From the NCBI GenBank assembly GCA_965277875.1, contig CBDIDV010000002.1:4578997-4642996 (forward strand): a DNA stretch of 64,000 bases. The letters run 5' to 3'. The DNA is from Chthonomonadaceae bacterium. GTDB lineage: Bacteria > Armatimonadota > Chthonomonadetes > Chthonomonadales > Chthonomonadaceae. Below are positions 48,443 to 58,613 of this stretch, in pieces. A model generated the notes under the pieces. It ran no database searches. It was not told where the DNA came from and saw only the letters and a program-made list of their open reading frames with translations. Every line of letters starts with the position of its first letter. Within the stretch, counting starts at the first letter, position 1. Position numbers and translations under genes: made by a program.

Positions 48443-48509
48443 AGGAGAAAGTAAAAAGTAAAAAGGAAAAAGTGACAGATGCGTTACTTTCTCCTTTCTC
48501 CTTTTTCCT
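48443..48509. repeat. family R1 repeat (polypurine tract followed by its polypyrimidine complement; hairpin-capable)
   Basis: aggagaaagtaaaaagtaaaaaggaaaaagtgac...gttactttctcctttctcctttttcct. Same CTTTCTCCTTTCTCCTTTTTCC unit as the valS inserts. Confidence 0.55.
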
Positions 48510-48614: not shown

Positions 48615-50438
48615 ATGGCAATGGCACGCAAAAGTCTTGGCGATTATATGCTCGAAAAGCAGTATCTCACCCAGACGCAGTTGGACGAGGCGCGCAAAGC
48701 GCAGCAAAGCACGCGCGGCGATCTGGCTAAAATCCTTGTGGAGATGGGCATTGACGGGCGCAAGGTGTACGAGGCCAAGGCGCAGGAGATGGGCGTACAG
48801 TACGCCAACCTTGCCATCTTCAAGCCCGAACCCTCCGCCATCAACGTCGTGCCGGAACACGTCGCCAAGCGGCACAACGTCATGCCGCTGAAAAAGCAGG
48901 ACAACATTTTGTTCGTCGCGATGGCCGATCCCGGCAATTTACAGGCGTCCGACGATCTGCGCCTGGTTTCGCGCTGTACCATCCGCCCTGTCATGGCCCC
49001 GCCCGCCGACATCGAGGAGACTATTGGCCGCAGCTACGGCAGCGCCCTCACTCCCCTGGACAACGCCACGGTCGCTGCGGCGACTACGACCGGCTCGTCT
49101 GCCAAACTTATGCCCGGCATGAACCCCAACAAGGGCGGTGGCGGCACGGAAGTGATGGACGTAGATACCAAGTCGGCCTTGGCCGAAGTCATAGCCTTGC
49201 AAGGGGCCGGCAAAGCCGCGATGGACGGCGAAAAAGAGGATGAAGCCGCTGCGGCGATGGTCGAGGAAGCGCCTATTGTGCGCCTCGCCAACACGATTTT
49301 GCAGTCGGCCATCAAAGAAAAGGCGTCGGATATTCACATCGAGCCGGATCGCCGCTACATCCGTGTCCGCTTCCGCATTGACGGCGTACTTCACGAAGTG
49401 ATGCAGATGCCCGCGTACATCAAGCAGCCCTTGATCGCCCGCTACAAAATCCTGTCGGAAATGAACATCGCCGAGCGGCGCGTTCCCCAGGACGGACGTA
49501 TCGGAACGCGCTACGACGGCAAAGAGTACGACCTGCGCGTATCGTGCCTGCCCAGCCTGCACGGCGAAAAGATCGTCATGCGTATCCTGGACAAGGGCAG
49601 CGTCATGCTCGGCATGAACAAACTCGGCTTTACGCCCGAAATGCAGGCGCAGATCGAGGAGCTGGCCTCGCAGCCCAACGGTATGCTGCTGTCTACCGGC
49701 CCCACGGGATCGGGCAAAACGACAACGCAGTATAGCCTGCTGAACAAACTCAACACGATTGAGAAGAACATTCTCACCGTGGAAGACCCCTGCGAATACC
49801 AGCTAAGCGGCATCACGCAGGTGCAGGTGAACAAGAAGGCCGGTCTGACGTTCTCGTCCGCCCTGCGCTCGTTCTTGCGGCAGGACCCGGACATCATCAT
49901 GGTCGGGGAAATGCGCGACCTGGAAACCGCTGAAATCGCCATTGAATCGGCGCTTACGGGCCACCTTGTGCTGAGTACGCTGCACACCAACGACGCGCCC
50001 TCGGCAACCATCCGCTTGATTGACATGGGCATCGAGCCATTCCTTATCTCGGCCACGATCATCGGCGTCATGGCGCAGCGGCTTGGACGCCGTATCTGCA
50101 CAAACTGCAAAGAGTATTATGAGGTTCCGGCCCCCGACCTGCGCCGTTTCGGCTACAAGGTGACAGACCCGGCTGAGATGGTACAGCTTGCGCGGGGCAA
50201 GGGCTGCGAGATGTGCCGCAACACGGGCTACAAAGGCCGCGTCGGCTTCTACGAGCTGATGACGATGAACGCGGAAATGGCCGAAATGATTGTGCGCCGC
50301 GCCCCGCTCACCGACCTGAAAGAAGCCGCCAAAGCCAACGGCATGAAGGAACTGCGCGAAGACGGACTTATCAAAGTCCTCCAGGGCCAGACCACTCCCG
50401 AAGAGGTCATGCGCGTAGTCTTCACCGCAGGCTTCTAA
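48615..50438 (+). CDS. pilB: type IV pilus assembly ATPase PilB (GspE family), full length
   Basis: N-terminal T2SSE_N-like domain. GPTGSGKTT Walker A, TVEDPCEY Asp box, IIMVGEMRD Walker B, GHLVLSTLHTN His box and a CxxC...CxxC tetracysteine. Confidence 0.9.
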   Translation: MAMARKSLGDYMLEKQYLTQTQLDEARKAQQSTRGDLAKILVEMGIDGRKVYEAKAQEMGVQYANLAIFKPEPSAINVVPEHVAKRHNVMPLKKQDNILFVAMADPGNLQASDDLRLVSRCTIRPVMAPPADIEETIGRSYGSALTPLDNATVAAATTTGSSAKLMPGMNPNKGGGGTEVMDVDTKSALAEVIALQGAGKAAMDGEKEDEAAAAMVEEAPIVRLANTILQSAIKEKASDIHIEPDRRYIRVRFRIDGVLHEVMQMPAYIKQPLIARYKILSEMNIAERRVPQDGRIGTRYDGKEYDLRVSCLPSLHGEKIVMRILDKGSVMLGMNKLGFTPEMQAQIEELASQPNGMLLSTGPTGSGKTTTQYSLLNKLNTIEKNILTVEDPCEYQLSGITQVQVNKKAGLTFSSALRSFLRQDPDIIMVGEMRDLETAEIAIESALTGHLVLSTLHTNDAPSATIRLIDMGIEPFLISATIIGVMAQRLGRRICTNCKEYYEVPAPDLRRFGYKVTDPAEMVQLARGKGCEMCRNTGYKGRVGFYELMTMNAEMAEMIVRRAPLTDLKEAAKANGMKELREDGLIKVLQGQTTPEEVMRVVFTAGF

Positions 50439-50458
50439 ACCTCCGACGATTGACGCTT

Positions 50459-50488
50459 GGGTTCCGGGCGCAAAAATGCCCGGAACCC
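50459..50488 (+). terminator. stem-loop between pilB and its paralog (attenuator/terminator-like)
   Basis: gggttccgggc-gcaaaaat-gcccggaaccc is a perfect 11-bp stem, followed by a U-poor tail. Confidence 0.45.
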
Positions 50489-50514
50489 GTTGTGGTTAGT
50501 AAGATGGTGTCCTT

Positions 50515-51834
50515 GTGGCTGAAAACGTAGAAGAAGCCGCCGTACAGATCGTGGATACAGATACCAAGTCAGCGCTTGCCGAAGTAATCGCTCTAGCCGG
50601 ATCGCGGGATGAGGCCGCCTTCTTTGAGGACATGGCTTCTTATAAGGAAGTAGCTGCGCGAGTAGAAGAAGCGCCGATTGTACGACTCGCTAACACGATT
50701 TTACAGTCGGCTATCAAAGCAGGCGCATCGCATATTCATATCGAGCCAAATCGCCGCTATACCGGTGTGTACTTCCGCATCGACGGCGTACTGTACGAAT
50801 TGGCGGCAATGCCGAAATATGCTCAACGCCCGCTTATACAGCGTTACAAAGTTCTGGCAAGCGTCAACATTATTGAGTACCGTGTGCCGCAATCGGGGGA
50901 AATAGGCGCTCGCTACGACGGCAGCGCTTACAATTTGATTGTGAGTTTTTTGCCGACTCTGCACGGCGAAAAAGTGGTAATCCGTATTGCAGATCCCTGC
51001 CTGCCGAAACTTACGCTGGATCAACTTGGCTTCACGCCGGATGTGCAGGCGCGGCTTGAAGATGTTTTGACAAACCGACGTGGCATGTTGTTGATTGCCG
51101 GGGCGACCGGGCAGGGCAAAACAACTACGCAATACGCTTTACTGAACAAGTTGATTCAAAGCGGGCTGACTGCTATCGCCGTTGATAGCGTTTATGATTA
51201 CGAACTTAGCGGTGTCACGCAAGTCAAGCTGAACAAGCAAATTGGGTACACGGCGGAAGAAGCGCTGGCGTCCGTTGCTTTGCTGGACATTGATGTTGTC
51301 GCGCTTGGCAGTTGTCCGAGCAAAGAGGCGCTGAACATCGCTTTGCAGATGGCGGCAGACAGCCAATTTGTTATCCATACACTGAGTTCTCATGGTCCTG
51401 CCGGTGTCCTGAACCGACTGCTGAACATCGGCGCAGCTCCTTCCCTGATTGCGGAAGGCGTCCATAGCATTCTTGTGCAAAGACTGGCGCGAAAGGTTTG
51501 CGCCCACTGCAAAGAGTCCTACGAAATCTGTGCCGATGAACTGCGACCCTTTGGCTATGACAGCGCCGGCCCCTATGAAATGGTACAGCTTGCTAGAGGT
51601 AAAGGCTGTGAGATGTGCCGCAACACGGGCTACAAGGGCCGCATCGGACTGTTTGAACTAATGACCATGAATGCGGAAATGGCAGAGGCAACAGCACGGG
51701 GCGCAGGCAAAAATTCTTTGATGGAAGCCGTCAAAGCCAATGGCATGATGGAAATGCGCGAAGACGGCCTCATCAAAATCTTACAGGGCGTTACCACCCT
51801 GGAAGAAATAATGCGCGTGGTTCCGGTAAGTTAA
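50515..51834 (+). CDS. catalytically degenerate PilB/GspE paralog (PilB') lacking the N-terminal domain
   Basis: Aligns to PilB from residue ~180 onward with high identity at both ends. Walker A is altered (GATGQGKTT), Asp box AVDSVYDY, Walker B VVALGSCPS, His box SQFVIHTLSSH. The tetracysteine is retained. GTG start. Confidence 0.75.
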   Translation: MAENVEEAAVQIVDTDTKSALAEVIALAGSRDEAAFFEDMASYKEVAARVEEAPIVRLANTILQSAIKAGASHIHIEPNRRYTGVYFRIDGVLYELAAMPKYAQRPLIQRYKVLASVNIIEYRVPQSGEIGARYDGSAYNLIVSFLPTLHGEKVVIRIADPCLPKLTLDQLGFTPDVQARLEDVLTNRRGMLLIAGATGQGKTTTQYALLNKLIQSGLTAIAVDSVYDYELSGVTQVKLNKQIGYTAEEALASVALLDIDVVALGSCPSKEALNIALQMAADSQFVIHTLSSHGPAGVLNRLLNIGAAPSLIAEGVHSILVQRLARKVCAHCKESYEICADELRPFGYDSAGPYEMVQLARGKGCEMCRNTGYKGRIGLFELMTMNAEMAEATARGAGKNSLMEAVKANGMMEMREDGLIKILQGVTTLEEIMRVVPVS

Positions 51835-51852
51835 TTGTTGCATGGAACTTGT

Positions 51853-52095
51853 ATGGCATACAAACAGTTGCACATACTGCAAAGAGTAGTGACAATCACG
51901 CGCTATCTTGCCCTGACCGGCACAGACGGCCCATCGCTCGCGCGCCTGCTTGACGAAACGGATTATCTTATCAGCCTGATACGGCATGGCGAAGAACAAC
52001 CGGGCGAGTTCGAGCGAGTGTTGCAAAATATCGGAAGATTACACGCTGATTTTGCCTCACTTGCTCAAGAGTATACAATGCCGGTCGCTGCATAG
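51853..52095 (+). CDS. hypothetical small protein (80 aa) within the pilus cluster
   Basis: ORF between pilB' and the pilin gene. No family recognised. May start at TTG 51835. Confidence 0.3.
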   Translation: MAYKQLHILQRVVTITRYLALTGTDGPSLARLLDETDYLISLIRHGEEQPGEFERVLQNIGRLHADFASLAQEYTMPVAA

Positions 52096-52123: not shown

Positions 52124-52729
52124 ATGCCGAACACTCGTTGCCGCGCGTTTACATTGGTGGAACTGTTGGTTGCTGTGGGCGTGATTGGGATACTGGCGGC
52201 GTTGCTGTTTCCTGTGGTCAACAAAGCGCGAAGTCAGGCGCGCAAGACGACGTGCCTGTCCAACCTGCGGCAGGTCGGTCTTGCGCTTAATCTGTACGAG
52301 CAGGATTGGGGGCAGTACGCGCCGCAGGGCTGGCACGACAACAGCCAGGATCTTGAACTCGTGCTGCCTGACCCGCTCGCCGCGTACACGCACGGCGCGG
52401 CGCTGTACCAGTGTCCCGAAACCAAATGCGAGTACAGTTTTCGCGGCTCGCTTGAAATGGATCTGGACGGACACTATAAATTGTTTCAGATGGCCCCGGA
52501 TAACGTACTTGCCTATTGCCCCCACGAGGATCATATTGAAGGACGCAAAGGCGACTTCTACCAGGTACTGCGTCAGGATATGTCGGTCAGCCGCGTACCC
52601 TCCGCCGATGTGAAGCTATGGTACTACATCAACGGGACATGGCAGCCGAACGCGCCCGCTTCCGAGTCGTATCAGCCGGGCGTAGTAGTGTTTCCCGGCG
52701 AAACGTGGCCGCTGCCGTTCACGAACTGA
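52124..52729 (+). CDS. type IV pilin-like protein (class III signal peptide)
   Basis: AGGAGA ribosome-binding site. MPNTRCRAFTLVELLVAVGVIGILAALLFPV. A TTCLSNLRQVGLALNLY segment shared with the DUF1559 proteins, but no H-X9-DG motif. Confidence 0.75.
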   Translation: MPNTRCRAFTLVELLVAVGVIGILAALLFPVVNKARSQARKTTCLSNLRQVGLALNLYEQDWGQYAPQGWHDNSQDLELVLPDPLAAYTHGAALYQCPETKCEYSFRGSLEMDLDGHYKLFQMAPDNVLAYCPHEDHIEGRKGDFYQVLRQDMSVSRVPSADVKLWYYINGTWQPNAPASESYQPGVVVFPGETWPLPFTN

Positions 52730-52740
52730 GAGTAAATTCT

Positions 52741-53142
52741 ATGACATCCTTTGCCCATGCGGAGATTTCGAGTTCAGGGAGCATCCAGACCGACATAAAC
52801 AATGCCGCCCGCAGGAAGGGATTGTTTATGTTCATCGAAAAGGCAAAGGAAGCCCAAGAGATCGCCCCTGAAACTGCGGAACTGGCATGGAGTACCTGGA
52901 ACCTGTTGAGCCGGACACTTGCACAGACGCTAATGGTTCCCGATGCCTCGTGTGGGCCGGACGATCAAATGCTGTTCCTGTGGGACAAAGACGAGCATCA
53001 CCTGGGACTTGAAATCGAGGCGACCGGAAACGGTTACTTTTTTTATCGCAATCGAGCGTCAGGAGCATTGTGGGACATGGACTACACACCGGGAAATGCT
53101 CTTAGCAGCGATGTGGTTGAGAAGCTGAGGATGTTTGCCTGA
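52741..53142 (+). CDS. hypothetical protein (133 aa), unknown function, inside the pilus cluster
   Basis: ATG ORF with good GC3. No signal peptide, no recognisable domain. Confidence 0.4.
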   Translation: MTSFAHAEISSSGSIQTDINNAARRKGLFMFIEKAKEAQEIAPETAELAWSTWNLLSRTLAQTLMVPDASCGPDDQMLFLWDKDEHHLGLEIEATGNGYFFYRNRASGALWDMDYTPGNALSSDVVEKLRMFA

Positions 53143-53145
53143 TTT

Positions 53146-53655
53146 ATGTCCATGCCGCTAATTCATGCCGGGCAGCAGGGAGAACGTCTGCCGGACGGCG
53201 AGAGAGTTCTTCGCCTGCTGAAAAAGACAACGAACGATGGGAAAGTTTCTCCTGACGAGTTTGAGCTTTCCACGCAGGATAAGCAGTCCCTGCTGCAATC
53301 CCTTTCAGTCTGGGCCGAGCGCCTGACGACGCCGGAGCAGGCGCGGGCGTTTATGGGCGACAAAAAGTACAGCTACTCCCTGTACTGTTCACTTGCAGTA
53401 GACACAATACGCGCACTTAGGCCGGAGCCGGATGCGAGCGCCGTTCGCCCACTGGATGTTGTCTGGGATCTGCTTACAATGGCGCAGCAAGACCATGAGG
53501 GTGCGTATGTGCCTCTGGGTATGGAAGGGCATTGCGGCCTGATGGGTTTGATGCGCCCGCCCGGTCTGTCAAAGCAGCATTTCTTCAGCCTGAGAAGCCA
53601 GTTAGCAGATTTAGCGAATAGCAGTCTCGCAAGCATACGCCGGGAACCGGACTGA
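53146..53655 (+). CDS. hypothetical protein (169 aa), translationally coupled to the previous ORF
   Basis: Its ATG is 4 nt after the stop of 52741-53142. No recognisable domain. Confidence 0.4.
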   Translation: MSMPLIHAGQQGERLPDGERVLRLLKKTTNDGKVSPDEFELSTQDKQSLLQSLSVWAERLTTPEQARAFMGDKKYSYSLYCSLAVDTIRALRPEPDASAVRPLDVVWDLLTMAQQDHEGAYVPLGMEGHCGLMGLMRPPGLSKQHFFSLRSQLADLANSSLASIRREPD

Positions 53656-53799: not shown

Positions 53800-55167
53800 T
53801 TGGCAAACAATCCGTACCCAACCCAGCCGCCTGGACAGCCGGGCGGTCAACAGCCGCAGCAGCCGGGAGGACAGCAGCCGACGGCCTACAACCCGGTTGC
53901 CACGCAACAGATGCCCGGAATGACGGGGCAGCCGCAGCAGTTACCCGGCCAGTCCACGCAGCCGGGGCAAATGCCCGTGCCGCAGGGCATCGGCCAGCCG
54001 ATGCCTACGGCACAGCCGATGCCTGCCGTGCAGGCCGTGCAGGTGGCATCCGCCAAGCCCACGCCGCTTGACGACGCGCATATTGACGACCTGCTGATGA
54101 CCATGTTCGAGAAGGGCGCGTCCGACCTGCACCTTGCCGTGGGAATCCCGCCCATCATCCGCGTGGACGGCGCGCTGGTTCCCTGCCCCTACGAGAAACT
54201 CAGCCCGCAGCACTCGCAGCGCCTGATCTACGACATCCTGACCGACGAGCAGATACAGCGGTTTGAAACGCACATGGAACTGGACTTTTCGTACCAGCTT
54301 GCGCGTACCGCCCGCTTCCGCGTCAACGTGTTTCGCGACAAGGGCAACGTGGCGAGCGCGTTCCGCCAGATCCCGCAGAAAATCCCGACACTCAAGGACC
54401 TGAACCTGCCCAACGTGCTGGAAGAGCTAACGCGCCTGCCGCGCGGCCTGGTCCTCGTGACCGGCCCGACGGGATCGGGTAAGTCCACCACGCTCGCCGC
54501 CATGATCAACCAGATCAACAGCGAAGTGAGCAAGCATGTCATCACGATTGAAGACCCGATTGAGTACCTGCACAACCACCGCACCAGCGTTATCAATCAG
54601 CGCGAAGTCGGCCAGGATACGCTGGAATTCAAGAACGCCCTGCGCGCCGCCCTGCGCGAAGACCCGGACGTGATCCTCGTCGGCGAAATGCGCGACCTGG
54701 AAACCATGCAGATGGCCGTGTCCGCAGCCGAAACGGGCCACCTTGTGTTCGCCACGCTGCATACCAACAGCGCGGCAACCTCGGTCGAGCGCATCGTGGA
54801 CTCGTTCCCGTCCGGTCAGCAGGAGCAGGTACGCCTTCAGTTGTCCAACAACCTGCAGGCGATCCTGTGCCAGCAGCTTATCCCGCGCGCCAATCAGCCG
54901 GGACGCGTCTGCGCCCTGGAGATCATGCGCGCTTCTCCGGCCATCCGCAACCTGATTCGCGAGGCCAAAGCGCATCAGATCACGAGTATGATCCAGACCA
55001 GCGCGAACCTGGGAATGCAGACAATGGATCAATGCTTGCGCGACCTGTACGTTCGGGGCCAGATCAGCTTCGAGGAAGCCATGACGCGCGCCATGAACCC
55101 GCCGGAACTGGAAAAGATGATTCGCACGGTCACAGCTCCGCTCGATGCCAAGCCCGCCGGAAGATAG
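53800..55167 (+). CDS. pilT: twitching-motility ATPase PilT with ~95-aa Pro/Gln-rich N-terminal extension (TTG start; N-terminus uncertain)
   Basis: Canonical PilT from LDDAHIDDLLMTMFEKGASDLHL onward: GPTGSGKSTT, IEDPIEY, ILVGEMRD, GHLVFATLHTN and the AIRNLIRE motif. Confidence 0.85.
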   Translation: MANNPYPTQPPGQPGGQQPQQPGGQQPTAYNPVATQQMPGMTGQPQQLPGQSTQPGQMPVPQGIGQPMPTAQPMPAVQAVQVASAKPTPLDDAHIDDLLMTMFEKGASDLHLAVGIPPIIRVDGALVPCPYEKLSPQHSQRLIYDILTDEQIQRFETHMELDFSYQLARTARFRVNVFRDKGNVASAFRQIPQKIPTLKDLNLPNVLEELTRLPRGLVLVTGPTGSGKSTTLAAMINQINSEVSKHVITIEDPIEYLHNHRTSVINQREVGQDTLEFKNALRAALREDPDVILVGEMRDLETMQMAVSAAETGHLVFATLHTNSAATSVERIVDSFPSGQQEQVRLQLSNNLQAILCQQLIPRANQPGRVCALEIMRASPAIRNLIREAKAHQITSMIQTSANLGMQTMDQCLRDLYVRGQISFEEAMTRAMNPPELEKMIRTVTAPLDAKPAGR

Positions 55168-55457: not shown

Positions 55458-55940
55458 ATGCCCATCTTCCAGTACACGGTGCTTGACCAGAGCGGAACTA
55501 TTCGTACTGGCACGTCGGAGGCCAGTGACAGCGAAATTCTTGATTATCGCCTGCGAGAGCAGGGTTTCGACGTCAAGGACATTCAGCCGGTAAACCAGCG
55601 CGCAAATCGGACATTTCCTGTTCGGGTAGCGCGTACTGATGTACTGGTGTTCTGGATACAGTTTTCGATTATGATTGACGCGCAGGTGGCGCGCTGGCGT
55701 TCCCTGGATGTTGCGGCAGAACAGGCGGCTTCGCCCGTCTTCAGGAACGTGCTGACCAAGCTTTCCAACCAGGTAATGGGAGGTACGCCCTTGTATCAGG
55801 CGATGGAACTGTATCCCCACGTGTTCGACAAGCCGAGCGTCGGCATCATCCGCGCCGGCGAAGTCGCCAACGCCTTGCCCGATGCGGTTCACCGCCTGAT
55901 ACAGTTTATGGAACGCGACCGGCGGCGCGAACGCGTTTAA
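55458..55940 (+). CDS. truncated PilC/GspF paralog (first T2SSF domain only, 160 aa)
   Basis: MPIFQYTVLDQSGTIRTGTSEASDSEILDYRLREQGFDV... parallels the pilC N-terminus. It ends after the first cytoplasmic domain and has no TM helices. Confidence 0.6.
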   Translation: MPIFQYTVLDQSGTIRTGTSEASDSEILDYRLREQGFDVKDIQPVNQRANRTFPVRVARTDVLVFWIQFSIMIDAQVARWRSLDVAAEQAASPVFRNVLTKLSNQVMGGTPLYQAMELYPHVFDKPSVGIIRAGEVANALPDAVHRLIQFMERDRRRERV

Positions 55941-56067
55941 CCTTGTGCCTGGACTGCCCTTTTACACACTCTTGTTAGACAACCTGCGTACACTGCCGAT
56001 GTATGCCGCGCCTGCAATTTTCGTTTCGTGATTTACCGTGCGTCCGCTTGGGAAGGAACCTAAACCA

Positions 56068-57327
56068 ATGCCCGTTTTTCAATATACTGTGCGTGACCAG
56101 ACCGGGGCCGTCCGCACCGGAACTTCGGAAGCGGAAAGCCAGGAGATCCTGAAGCGCCGCCTGCAGGAGCAGGGCTTTCAAGTCAACGAGGTCAGCGCGA
56201 CCAAAGGCAAAAAGAAAAAGTCGGCCACGGCGGGCTTCGGCAAAGTAAAACTGCACGACCTGTCCATCTTTTGCCGCCAGTTCTCCACAATGATTGATGC
56301 GGGCGTGTCGCTCGTGCGCGCCCTGGACGTGTTGGGCGAGCAGACGCAGAACCCCAAACTCAAGCGCATCCTCAAAGAGATACAGGTCGAAGTCGAGTCG
56401 GGCGGCCAGTTGTCCAAAGCGATGCAGAAGTACCCTAAAGTCTTCAGCAACCTGTTCATCGGGCTTGTGCGGGCGGGGGAAGTCGGTGGTGTACTCGAAG
56501 AAGCCCTCCAGCGCCTGTCCCACTTCCTTGAAAAGGACATGGAACTCAAGCGCAAGGTGAAGTCGGCCATGACGTATCCCGTCATCGTCCTGGTCGTCGC
56601 CCTGCTCATCGTGCTTGGCCTGTGTACCTTCATCGTCCCCAAGTTCGTAGACCTGTTCAAAGACCTGGGCGTCAAGGAACTGCCCGCCATGACGCAGTTC
56701 CTCGTGGATGTCAGCGACTTTATCAAAACGAAATGGTACGTCGGTATCATTATTATCCTGGTGGTGTGGTTTTCCATCAAATACTTTGGCACAACCAAAG
56801 TCGGGCGGCGCGTCATTGACCGCGTCAAGCTGAAAGTGCCGGTCTTTGGCAAGCTGGGACACAAAATCTGTATCGCGCGTTTTTCGCGCACACTGGCAAC
56901 TCTGCTTGTGTCGGGCGTACCGATTTTGCAGGCGATGGAAACCGTGGCCGGAACGCTGGGCAATGAGATCATTGCCGAGGCCGTGATGAACGCCCGCGCC
57001 CGCATCCGTGAGGGTGACAAGATCAACGAGCCGCTGGAAAAAAGCAAGATGTTCCCGCCAATGGTCGTTCACATGATCAGCATCGGCGAGGAGTCGGGCG
57101 CGCTCGACCAGATGCTTTCCAAAGTGGCCGAGTTCTATGAGGCCGAGGTGGAAGCCTCTCTCGCCAGTCTGACGGCGGCCATCGAGCCGGTCATGATCGT
57201 TGTCCTGGGCATCATCGTCGGCTTCATCGTTATCGCCATGTTCATGCCCCTGATCGCGGTCATCCAGAACCTGACGGGCGGCGGCGACGACGAGAACAAG
57301 AAGTCCGGCGGCGCCGCCAGCGAGTAG
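56068..57327 (+). CDS. pilC: type IV pilus inner-membrane platform protein PilC (GspF family)
   Basis: Two T2SSF domains and three TM helices. GGAAGGA ribosome-binding site upstream of the ATG at 56068. Confidence 0.9.
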   Translation: MPVFQYTVRDQTGAVRTGTSEAESQEILKRRLQEQGFQVNEVSATKGKKKKSATAGFGKVKLHDLSIFCRQFSTMIDAGVSLVRALDVLGEQTQNPKLKRILKEIQVEVESGGQLSKAMQKYPKVFSNLFIGLVRAGEVGGVLEEALQRLSHFLEKDMELKRKVKSAMTYPVIVLVVALLIVLGLCTFIVPKFVDLFKDLGVKELPAMTQFLVDVSDFIKTKWYVGIIIILVVWFSIKYFGTTKVGRRVIDRVKLKVPVFGKLGHKICIARFSRTLATLLVSGVPILQAMETVAGTLGNEIIAEAVMNARARIREGDKINEPLEKSKMFPPMVVHMISIGEESGALDQMLSKVAEFYEAEVEASLASLTAAIEPVMIVVLGIIVGFIVIAMFMPLIAVIQNLTGGGDDENKKSGGAASE

Positions 57328-57409
57328 GAAAGGGGCAGGGAAAAGGAGAAAGGAAACAGGAGAAAGCAGCGTCGCCGTCACTTTCTCCTTTCTCCTTTTC
57401 CCTTTTTCC
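57327..57409. repeat. family R1 repeat (hairpin-capable polypurine/polypyrimidine)
   Basis: ggaaaggggcagggaaaaggagaaaggaaacaggagaaagcagcgtcgccgtcactttctcctttctccttttccctttttcct. Lies between pilC and pilD. Confidence 0.55.
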
Positions 57410-57419
57410 TGAAGCAAGC

Positions 57420-58613
57420 ATGATTGTTCCTGTCGCCTTCTGGGGTATCACGATGTTTGCGCTGGGCATCACGGTCGGCAGTTTTCTGACGGCGGTGATT
57501 TATCGGCTTGGGCAGCAGGCGCTCGGATTGCAGACATTAAGCCTGCTGGAACCCAAGCGCTCGATGTGTCCCATTTGCAGGCATTCGCTGGGTGCGCTGG
57601 ACTTGATACCGCTGTTCAGTTTTCTGCTTGCCGGACAGAAGTGCCGCTACTGCAAAGCGCCGATCTCGTGGCGCTACTTCGGCGTGGAACTGCTGACGGG
57701 CCTGCTGTTTGTAAGTTTGTTTCTGCACTTTCCGCATACCACGATGCGGGACGTGCCTACCCTGATCGCCGCGCTCGCGTTCGGCGCGACCCTGATCCCC
57801 ATCTTCTTCATTGACCTGGAAACGTATACCATTCCGATCTCGCTGACCCTTCTGGCAACGGTGATCCCCGTTGCAAGGGATATATGGGGCATCACGCATC
57901 ACGAAATGGGATACGAACTGGTATGGGGATGGCTGCCGCGCTCGATTTTGGGCGGCCTGATAGGCGGATTAATCTTCGGATTCGTGCGTGTGTCGGGCTG
58001 GATATACAAGGGCATTGAGGCGATGGGCCTGGGCGACGTATATCTGGCACGGGGAATGGGCGCGATGCTGATGATCTCCATGCCGCCCGCCCTGGCTGCG
58101 GGGTGGTTTTTCCTGTGGGTGATACTGTCCTGCGTGACGGCTATAGTCGTCTACCCGATAGACAAGGCCGTTCGGCGCAAGGCGAATGCAAAAAAAATTT
58201 CGCTGACCGGGCAAAAAACTCTGGATCGGTACGGAAATACGCCTGCTCCTGTGGAATTAACCGGCAAACCGGGCGATAATGAAGACGAGCAATCGGAAGA
58301 AACTCTATCCTGGCAGCGCGAAGGCACATTCGGCGCGCAGGTGCGCGACATTGCCGAGGCCCTGTTCGGCTACGACGCCCTGGAATGGACGCGCTACACC
58401 TTTGACCGCAAGTACCGACAGCGCCTGGAAGCCGAGGCCGTAAACCTGCCGGACGAGGAAGAATGGACGCCCGCCGACACCGCCATTCCGTTCGGCCCGT
58501 TCCTTGTCGTAGGCTTCCTGCTGACCCTGTTCTTCGGCCCGGCCCTGCTCACCGCCTATTTCGCCTACACACATCTGTTTGCGCCCGCAAACACGGCTTC
58601 GGTCACGCAATAG
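57420..58613 (+). CDS. pilD: prepilin peptidase/N-methyltransferase PilD (A24 family) with ~100-aa cytoplasmic insertion
   Basis: N-terminal CPICRH...CRYC zinc motif. Catalytic-Asp context FIDLETYTIP. Eight TM helices. The inserted acidic segment is KANAKKISL...DEEEWTPADT. Confidence 0.85.
   Translation: MIVPVAFWGITMFALGITVGSFLTAVIYRLGQQALGLQTLSLLEPKRSMCPICRHSLGALDLIPLFSFLLAGQKCRYCKAPISWRYFGVELLTGLLFVSLFLHFPHTTMRDVPTLIAALAFGATLIPIFFIDLETYTIPISLTLLATVIPVARDIWGITHHEMGYELVWGWLPRSILGGLIGGLIFGFVRVSGWIYKGIEAMGLGDVYLARGMGAMLMISMPPALAAGWFFLWVILSCVTAIVVYPIDKAVRRKANAKKISLTGQKTLDRYGNTPAPVELTGKPGDNEDEQSEETLSWQREGTFGAQVRDIAEALFGYDALEWTRYTFDRKYRQRLEAEAVNLPDEEEWTPADTAIPFGPFLVVGFLLTLFFGPALLTAYFAYTHLFAPANTASVTQ

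Follow-up and report, generated by a model that had tools for sequence, protein, structure and literature searches.

A predicted pseudo-ATPase copy of the PilB core, retained beside pilB in a small clade of Armatimonadota, as a possible tuner of the type IV pilus motor

The window analysed here is a stretch of 64,000 nucleotides (nt) from a Chthonomonadaceae bacterium (assembly GCA_965277875.1, contig CBDIDV010000002.1, positions 4,578,997 to 4,642,996), in which pilB, the gene for the type IV pilus (T4P) extension ATPase, is followed by a truncated paralogue that we call pilB′. The genes in order encode RuvX, YceG, a HAD phosphatase, shikimate dehydrogenase, PilB, PilB′, a variable stretch, PilT, PilC′, PilC, PilD and the pilins. 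Comparison loci are labelled L081-L090, and proteins from an exhaustive HMMER search with a PilB′ profile carry P0xxx labels. The features of the window are as follows, with protein lengths in amino acids (aa).

48615-50438, + strand: pilB, type IV pilus extension ATPase, 607 aa, with an MshEN N1 domain and a T2SSE core
50458-50489, + strand: stem-loop, 20 nt 3′ of the pilB stop, terminator- or attenuator-like, with a weak U-tract
50515-51834, + strand: pilB′, 439 aa, GTG start, predicted pseudo-ATPase paralogue of the PilB core (N2D and CTD)
51835-52095, + strand: 86-aa open reading frame (ORF) without a family, adjoining pilB′
52124-53655: variable island between pilB′ and pilT
53800-55167, + strand: pilT, retraction ATPase, motifs intact, with a Pro/Gln-rich N-terminal extension
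55458-55940, + strand: pilC′, 160 aa, soluble paralogue of the N-terminal cytoplasmic domain of PilC
56038-57327, + strand: pilC, full-length platform protein, 429 aa, with two T2SSF domains
57420-58613, + strand: pilD, prepilin peptidase

The original prediction had described PilB′ as a truncated copy of the C-terminal part of PilB, and its coordinates were reproduced. Residues 1-436 of PilB′ aligned by BLASTP to residues 169-602 of PilB with 54% identity (E = 6e-161). Pfam assigned MshEN and T2SSE domains to PilB and T2SSE alone to PilB′ (PF00437, 269.6 bits, residues 51-434); a search of PilB′ with PF05157 (N1/MshEN) gave no match, and the first residue of PilB′ corresponds to residue 169 of PilB. 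All catalytic motifs were intact in PilB, which scored 629.8 bits against TIGR02538 and 578.9 bits against TIGR02533, and the PilB orthologues were 85-97% identical, with a ratio of non-synonymous to synonymous substitution rates (dN/dS) of 0.05-0.13. The scores of PilB′ were 341.5 bits against TIGR02538 (PilB; cut-off 675.65) and 345.6 bits against TIGR02533 (GspE; cut-off 630.25). As these are about half of the PilB and GspE equivalog cut-offs, PilB′ should not be filed as a PilB.

To define what PilB′ has lost and kept, we scored the motif states across eight members of the PilB′ family, using the residue numbers of Geobacter PilB. The roles of the residues concerned (E395 catalytic, E357 Mg-coordinating, the His box and the arginine fingers) are taken from Geobacter PilB structures, and mutating these motifs abolishes activity in PilT-like ATPases (PMC5424180). 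In the window, Walker A reads GPTGSGKTT in PilB and GATGQGKTT in PilB′, which fits GxxGxGK[ST]; the Asp box changes from TVEDPCEY to AVDSVYDY, the Walker B motif with the catalytic Glu from DIIMVGEMRD to DVVALGSCPS, and the His box from LTGHLVLSTLHTN to ADSQFVIHTLSSH. Every motif string quoted in the original prediction was thus recovered, and the four cysteines were kept. Across the family, the catalytic Glu (E395) was replaced by Ser, Arg, Gln or His in 8/8 copies, all three His-box residues (T411, H413 and H420) were lost in 8/8, and the first acidic residues of the Asp box were gone. The four zinc cysteines (CxxC...CxxC) were retained in all eight copies, as was the acidic residue of pore loop 1 (D398 or E400), a loop expected to face PilC. 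The Mg-coordinating position of the Asp box (E357) was Asp or Glu in 8/8; the window copy has Asp, which may be able to take over this role. Six of the eight retained both Lys and Thr of Walker A. The arginine fingers were retained in 7/8 (R271) and 4/8 (R286) copies, with Ile and Arg, respectively, in the window copy. The proposal that every catalytic signature is ablated therefore stands for the catalytic Glu and the His box, but not for the Mg-ligand position, which is still acidic, nor for the arginine finger that the window copy keeps.

We also modelled PilB′ with AlphaFold2 (AF2). The model had a predicted local distance difference test (pLDDT) score of 86, and its best structural matches were the PilB cores 5TSH, 5TSG and 5OIU (TM-scores 0.89-0.91), so that the two-domain PilB fold is predicted to be intact. 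Because the catalytic Glu and the γ-phosphate-sensing His box are lost, PilB′ is expected not to turn over ATP. Because the core, the zinc site, the P-loop, an acidic residue at the Mg-ligand position and the pore-loop residue are kept, it probably folds, oligomerises, and binds nucleotide and PilC-type domains. The motif pattern suggests that it probably binds Mg-nucleotide without hydrolysing it. With clear homology to an ATPase family and loss of essential catalytic residues, PilB′ is, judged by its sequence, a pseudoenzyme.

We then assessed selection on pilB′. Nine full-length PilB′ copies of 434-456 aa, some of them as little as 48% identical to one another, were free of stop codons and frameshifts. 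The closest pair, which was unsaturated (L084 and L087, 93.6% identical), had a dN of 0.032, a dS of 0.26 and a dN/dS of 0.12 by three methods, and the dS of pilB′ equalled that of pilB in these two genomes. The other pairs gave dN/dS values of 0.15-0.25, in the same range as the flanking housekeeping genes. The segment that corresponds to the former active site (PilB residues 386-470) was 32% identical between PilB′ and PilB and 61% identical among PilB′ copies, with a dN/dS of 0.12 and new conserved sequence such as LN..IGYTAE.AL.S.A.LD..V.AL. From this pattern, the segment appears to have settled on a conserved sequence of its own and not to be decaying. The GC content at third codon positions (GC3) of pilB′ was 0.555, compared with 0.78 for pilB and 0.67-0.82 for the neighbouring genes. 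The original view of PilB′ as a retained paralogue, not a decaying pseudogene, is borne out by the intact copies and by dN/dS values of 0.12-0.25.

The best PilB matches had named neighbours among Chthonomonadaceae and Armatimonadota MAGs (metagenome-assembled genomes), and proteins of 434-456 aa with the same degenerate motifs were present in other assemblies. In at least seven loci (the window, L081-L085 and L087) an intact pilB′ lay directly 3′ of a full-length pilB and ahead of pilT, which answers the synteny check suggested with the original prediction; two further copies were on short contigs, and at least eight related genomes have kept the gene under selection. A PilB′ profile search of 5.8 billion proteins returned eight clusters at 697-799 bits, with true PilBs at 623 bits or below. 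When 33 true PilBs were included in a neighbour-joining tree, 200/200 bootstraps grouped the PilB′ sequences as one clade. Between the window and its nearest relative, L083, the flanking housekeeping genes were 78-81% identical in DNA and 72-81% in protein, and PilB, PilT and PilC were 96-97% identical in protein (PilB 96.7%); the genomes that carry PilB′ are different species. The syntenic outgroup L088 (GCA_038216735.1) had pilB, pilT, pilC and pilD in the same order, without PilB′ and without PilC′.

These comparisons also bear on the ends of PilB and PilB′, whose apparent near-identity had been read as a sign of recent local duplication. That reading did not hold: the DNA of pilB and pilB′ was only 57% identical at the N-terminal junction and 76-82% identical around the zinc motif, and PilB′ is one clade across species. 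Recent gene conversion was ruled out as the cause of the similar ends by a segment-wise identity comparison, in which no PilB′ segment resembled the PilB encoded beside it more than the PilBs of other genomes; only lineage-specific patches of raised identity to the whole PilB clade were seen. Since the DNA is not near-identical and no segment is closest to its own pilB, the similar ends reflect constraint at the protein level, to which old, patchy gene conversion has perhaps contributed. Genomes whose housekeeping genes share only about 80% DNA identity had not yet split when the duplication took place. These results indicate that pilB′ arose by one old tandem duplication of the pilB core in the ancestor of a small Armatimonadota clade and was kept by selection. 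In our judgement it is very probable that an old duplication of the PilB core gave rise to PilB′ as a paralogue that is hydrolysis-dead and under selection.

The spacer between pilB and pilB′ contains the perfect 11-bp hairpin that had been noted there. Its arms (50459-50469 and 50478-50488) form 11 Watson-Crick pairs, or 13 pairs when G-U is included (50458-50489), around a loop of 6-8 nt, followed by the tail TTGTGGTTAG. The hairpin is not expected by chance (0/100 shuffles), and the 85 nt around it had a folding energy of -34 kcal/mol (z = -3.2). It was the strongest terminator-like site of the region and single-copy within the window, not a repeated element. Read by eye, a clear hairpin also lay 3′ of pilB in L081 and L085, an imperfect stem with a large loop followed pilB in L082, and a long inverted repeat followed it in L083 and L084. 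The stem-loop looks like an intrinsic terminator or attenuator, a function suggested by its predicted structure. The originally suggested hetero-hexamer, and a hairpin that might set the stoichiometry of the two genes, find indirect support in these hairpins and inverted repeats, in the low GC3 of pilB′ and in natural fusion proteins. As a separate observation, the long inverted repeats of the L083 (9812-10000) and L084 (7280-7750) spacers are built on CCGGGTACAGAGAACGTACCCGTC; they are absent from the window and may be small mobile or repetitive extragenic palindromic (REP)-like elements.

A second truncated paralogue, PilC′, lies 5′ of pilC. It was 43% identical to residues 11-172 of PilC and matched PF00482 (T2SSF) with 49.8 bits. 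Each of the five intact copies stopped just short of the first transmembrane helix and had neither transmembrane helices nor the second T2SSF repeat. PilC′ aligned to cytoplasmic domain I, a soluble domain known from crystals of EpsF, OutF and Thermus PilC, and its AF2 model, built from a two-sequence alignment (pLDDT 88), superposed on cytoplasmic domain I of OutF, EpsF and PilC with a root-mean-square deviation of 1.1-1.9 Å. Intact PilC′ with conserved motifs of its own was found 5′ of pilC in L083, L084, L085 and L087, and its dN/dS was 0.11-0.23. The clade with PilB′ is also the one with PilC′, and the outgroup L088 has neither. PilC's N-terminal domain reportedly pulls down PilB, and its predicted position is within the PilB pore (PMC5424180). 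Additionally, homologues of the 86-aa ORF (tblastn, 41-63% identity) were found directly before or after pilB′ in four related loci:

L084, 7475-7690: homologue of the 86-aa ORF
L087, 11900-12121: homologue of the 86-aa ORF
L085, 11760-11984: homologue of the 86-aa ORF
L081, 12659-12856: homologue of the 86-aa ORF

The 86-aa ORF had no Pfam, NCBIfam or PADLOC family match and a GC3 of 0.52, low like that of pilB′; from its linkage, it could be a third component.

Degenerate PilB copies were also present in other lineages. The HMMER search yielded further truncated or degenerate PilB-like proteins (P0146, P0147, P0150, P0151, P0155-P0157, P0160, P0161 and P0165) and two full-length degenerate ones (P0148 and P0300), all with the four cysteines kept and with assorted losses of catalytic residues. 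P0146 lies directly 3′ of its own pilB, in the same synteny (L089), and was 62% identical to that PilB, 52-57% to other PilBs and 39-47% to the PilB′ of the window clade; being closest to its neighbouring PilB, it points to an independent duplication. P0300 was likewise closest to a PilB, P0043 (66%), on a contig of equal length, from which the two may be adjacent; a metagenome scan with P0300 gave no match. P0150 stands alone, away from pilus genes (L090). In a neighbour-joining tree all the degenerate paralogues clustered together. This clustering is probably long-branch attraction, since the nearest sequence to P0146, and likewise to P0300, is a PilB from its own lineage. Other Armatimonadota lineages thus hold degenerate PilB copies, of which at least two look, from sequence identity, like independent duplications. 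A single profile of the heterogeneous degenerate paralogues was tried as a classifier and failed to separate them from true PilBs or from double-PilB fusions. As a control, we took the distant PilB loci (at most 42% identity) among the matches listed in the contig scan with the PilB′ alignment; motif degeneration was found in 0/140 PilB/PilT-family ORFs of these 80 listed, unrelated loci from many phyla.

Fusions of the same modules were found as well. Proteins of about 1000 aa with two complete tandem PilB cores (P0132-P0145, P0149 and P0169) were recovered by the HMMER search; the catalytic motifs were intact in both cores of the 13/13 examined, and their close relatives are named Patescibacteria. 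P0139 (1047 aa) comprises two soluble T2SSF domains, a degenerate PilB core (Walker A K>T, Asp-box E>Q) and an intact PilB core; it is a single cluster and arose independently. Gene fusions are classically taken as a sign that the fused parts work together. The recurrence of degenerate copies in separate lineages, together with fusions that join the same modules, argues that the arrangement is useful and not accidental. Separately, in P0170, P0171 and P0173 the N1 domain is apparently replaced by an excisionase-type helix-turn-helix domain (HTH_17 confirmed by Pfam for P0170 only; P0171 and P0173 read by eye), and their His boxes are degenerate to varying degree.

The explanation that we consider best is that PilB′ is a selected pseudo-ATPase that tunes the PilB-PilC motor, with PilC′ as its probable partner; we give this explanation as a whole a probability of about 0.55. 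PilB′ would be a hexamer-forming core, as in crystallised PilB, without the N1 domain and without hydrolysis. The N1/MshEN domain docks PilB and senses cyclic di-GMP (c-di-GMP). PilB′ would be made at a low level behind the terminator-like hairpin; low expression relative to pilB fits its low GC3 and the hairpin upstream. It would engage PilB-type surfaces through the packing of N2D and CTD with PilB subunits, its pore would bind PilC-type N-terminal domains, and it would act as a non-hydrolysing subunit, a competitor or a brake that tunes pilus extension. PilC′ would be the partner or the counter-player of PilB′, the two probably working together. The assembly might take the form of mixed PilB/PilB′ rings, separate PilB′ rings or a soluble PilB′-PilC′ complex.

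Several observations support this mode of action indirectly: PilC′ matches the PilB-binding domain of PilC, the pore-loop acidic residue is present in all eight PilB′ copies, pilB′ combines a low GC3 with an upstream hairpin, and both fusions (P0139 and 13 double-PilB proteins) and recurring degenerate PilB copies (P0146 and P0300) exist. The specific mode of action of PilB′, read from gene and protein features, is nevertheless put forward as tentative. More doubtful still is the fuller picture, in which PilB′ and PilC′ form a soluble, non-hydrolysing mimic of motor and platform, or PilB′ joins mixed rings, as a brake or tuner that evolved repeatedly in Armatimonadota and as fusions elsewhere.

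A number of points weigh against a tuning role. The atypical Gly of Walker B is Asp in 7/8 PilB′ copies (not in the window copy), which gives the canonical hhhhD motif, and PilB′ may thus have an unusual catalytic chemistry. The P-loop Lys is lost in two members, so nucleotide binding is not universal in the family. Between the window and L083, PilB identity is 96.7% but PilB′ identity just 54%; for this pair, PilB′ had a dN of 0.38 and a dS of about 1.5 (pilB dS 0.46), PilC′ a dS of about 1.3 and neighbouring genes a dS of 0.34-0.94, which puts PilB′ and PilC′ at about twice the dS of their neighbours. The two PilB′ are not sisters in the tree, whereas their pilB genes are, and the trees of both PilB′ and PilC′ disagree with the pilB tree. 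Allele exchange between lineages, weak codon bias or saturation are possible causes of this excess divergence of PilB′ and PilC′. The DNA homologous to PilC′ is frameshifted in L081 and L082; as one of these assemblies also has a frameshifted pilC (L081) and the other a truncated pilT (L082), these frameshifts are likely sequencing indels. PilC′ is also absent beside P0146, which was derived independently, and PilB′ therefore need not be paired with PilC′. A C2 mechanism, in which opposite subunits fire together, has been proposed for PilB (PMC5424180); strict alternation of live and dead subunits conflicts with it, and a simple 3:3 hetero-hexamer is thus not obviously workable. Without an N1 domain, PilB′ may fail to reach the machine alone. 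Lastly, the genomes are all uncultured metagenome-assembled genomes (MAGs) or assemblies.

Among the alternatives, PilB′ might be functional away from the motor, as a stand-alone nucleotide-binding or signalling protein that has remained beside its parent gene. Its missing docking domain would suit such a role, as would the location of some degenerate PilB-like proteins outside pilus loci (P0150, L090) and the N-terminal helix-turn-helix domain of P0170; in the available part of one report, PilB itself acts as a signalling protein in the control of Myxococcus exopolysaccharide (PMC5544727). We regard this alternative as unlikely, since PilB′ sits strictly between pilB and pilT in the seven loci, appeared together with PilC′, and keeps the pore-loop acidic residue and the oligomerisation core, and since the natural fusion protein P0139 joins the same three modules.

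It is improbable that PilB′ is still an active ATPase that uses substitute residues, as a second extension motor like TfpB of Acinetobacter. Systems with two extension ATPases do exist (PMC11656802), and the intact Walker A in six of eight copies, the acidic Mg-ligand position in all eight and the restored hhhhD motif in seven would be in keeping with activity. Against this, every copy has another residue in place of the catalytic Glu and has lost the entire His box, the arginine fingers are variably lost (the first being Ile in the window copy), mutations in the equivalent motifs abolish activity in PilT-like ATPases (PMC5424180), and PilB′ reaches 341 bits where the PilB equivalog cut-off is 675.

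Quite improbable, too, is a decoy function, in which PilB′, possibly with PilC′, would absorb phage or other inhibitors of PilB and so shield the real motor. The amino-acid divergence of PilB′, about 17 times that of PilB (dN 0.38 compared with 0.023, window and L083), its tree incongruent with the pilB tree and its place beside a variable island would be expected of a decoy, and PilB-binding phage proteins are described in the available part of a review (PMC11656802). However, every region had a dN/dS far below 1 and none showed signs of diversifying selection; PADLOC gave no defence-system model match, only weak generic P-loop matches; and divergence is greatest in the former active site, which is buried and not an obvious binding surface. 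Finally, a slowly decaying pseudogene with an accidentally open frame, to which the lost catalytic motifs, the low GC3 and the much faster evolution of PilB′ than of PilB might point, is contradicted by nine full-length copies without stop or frameshift, dN/dS values of 0.12-0.25, the conserved former active-site segment and the confident AF2 model, and is highly improbable.

The remainder of the locus showed further features. In the window, a DUF1559 prepilin-like gene (52124-52729) lies in the island together with two ORFs (about 52741-53142 and 53146-53655), and these two ORFs are common only to the window and L083 (64-71% identity). A DDE transposase occupies the island position in L081, and the remaining loci carry other content. 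PilT starts with TTG and has a Pro/Gln/Gly-rich, low-complexity N-terminal extension of about 95 aa (53800-54090), which is also found in L081 and L083; such an extension is believed to be unusual for PilT. Inverted repeats of purine-rich and pyrimidine-rich sequence (GGAGAAAG...CTTTCTCC) at 48443-48502 and 57336-57411 flank the motor genes, one just 5′ of pilB and the other just 3′ of pilC, and the repeat at 57336-57411 was 81% identical, in reverse orientation, to DNA upstream of pilB in L084. A search with Rfam gave no match anywhere in the window.

Descriptions of the motor ATPases of T4P and type II secretion systems (T2SS) portray them as rings with a single kind of subunit, under the control of small ligands and of unrelated cofactors. 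A selected dead copy of the motor core beside the live gene suggests an extra layer of control by a non-catalytic paralogue, and PilC′, as a soluble copy of the motor-binding platform domain in the same clade, points the same way. Control by non-catalytic paralogues is well known in F1/V1-ATPases and clamp loaders. If true, PilB′ would be the first natural pseudo-ATPase regulator in the PilT/GspE/VirB11 family of secretion ATPases and a natural probe of the coupling between the PilB ring and PilC. As a natural hydrolysis-dead subunit and a natural soluble platform domain, respectively, PilB′ and PilC′ could aid the study of how PilB grips and turns PilC. The main limit is one of scope, as only a few uncultured Armatimonadota carry the PilB′ family, whose function given here is an inference.

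The claim that no such partner is described for T4P/T2SS ATPases agreed with the papers searched, including a 2024 review of PilB cofactors, in which a catalytically dead PilB paralogue as a motor partner was not described; those papers list c-di-GMP, PilZ/FimX, CpiA, phage inhibitors, and the active second motors TfpB and PilU. In the available text of PMC11656802, PilZ/FimX, CpiA and the phage proteins Tip and Aqs1 likewise modulate the extension motor at the protein level, but they have unrelated folds and are not motor paralogues. PilU and TfpB are second pilus-ATPase paralogues that cooperate with the primary motor (PMC6762196; PMC11656802); as far as the available parts of these sources go, they are functional ATPases that drive retraction or extension, whereas PilB′ is without the catalytic Glu and the His box.

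The closest structural comparison is with PilB/GspE itself (Geobacter metallireducens PilB, 5TSG/5TSH; Thermus PilF, 5OIU). PilB′ shares the fold and order of N2D and CTD with 36-37% identity, together with the tetracysteine zinc site, the P-loop and the pore-loop acidic residue, and its extent is about that of the crystallised "core ATPase domains" of Geobacter PilB, in which N1 is absent or unbuilt; it differs in being without N1/MshEN, E395, T411/H413/H420 and the first Asp-box acidic residues. The double-PilB fusions likewise place two PilB cores on one polypeptide, with both cores intact in 13 proteins, and P0139 unites the three modules of the window with one core degenerate. In F1/V1-ATPases, the alpha/B subunits are ring paralogues of the catalytic subunit with non-catalytic, "pseudo-active" sites, according to the available parts of two sources (PMC10624635, PMC12550136). 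Those enzymes belong to another ATPase family in which an alternating hetero-hexamer is established, whereas a mixed ring with PilB′ is hypothetical, and the C2 mechanism of PilB makes strict alternation of that kind questionable for PilB′. The archaellum protein FlaH/ArlH binds ATP without hydrolysing it, and its nucleotide-dependent binding to FlaI/ArlI is needed for assembly (PMC5019145). As the archaellum is a relative of the type IV pilus, ArlH/FlaH is the closest known example of how PilB′ might work. The likeness would be functional only: ArlH/FlaH has a RecA/KaiC-type fold and is no paralogue of the motor, whereas PilB′ is a direct copy of the motor core.

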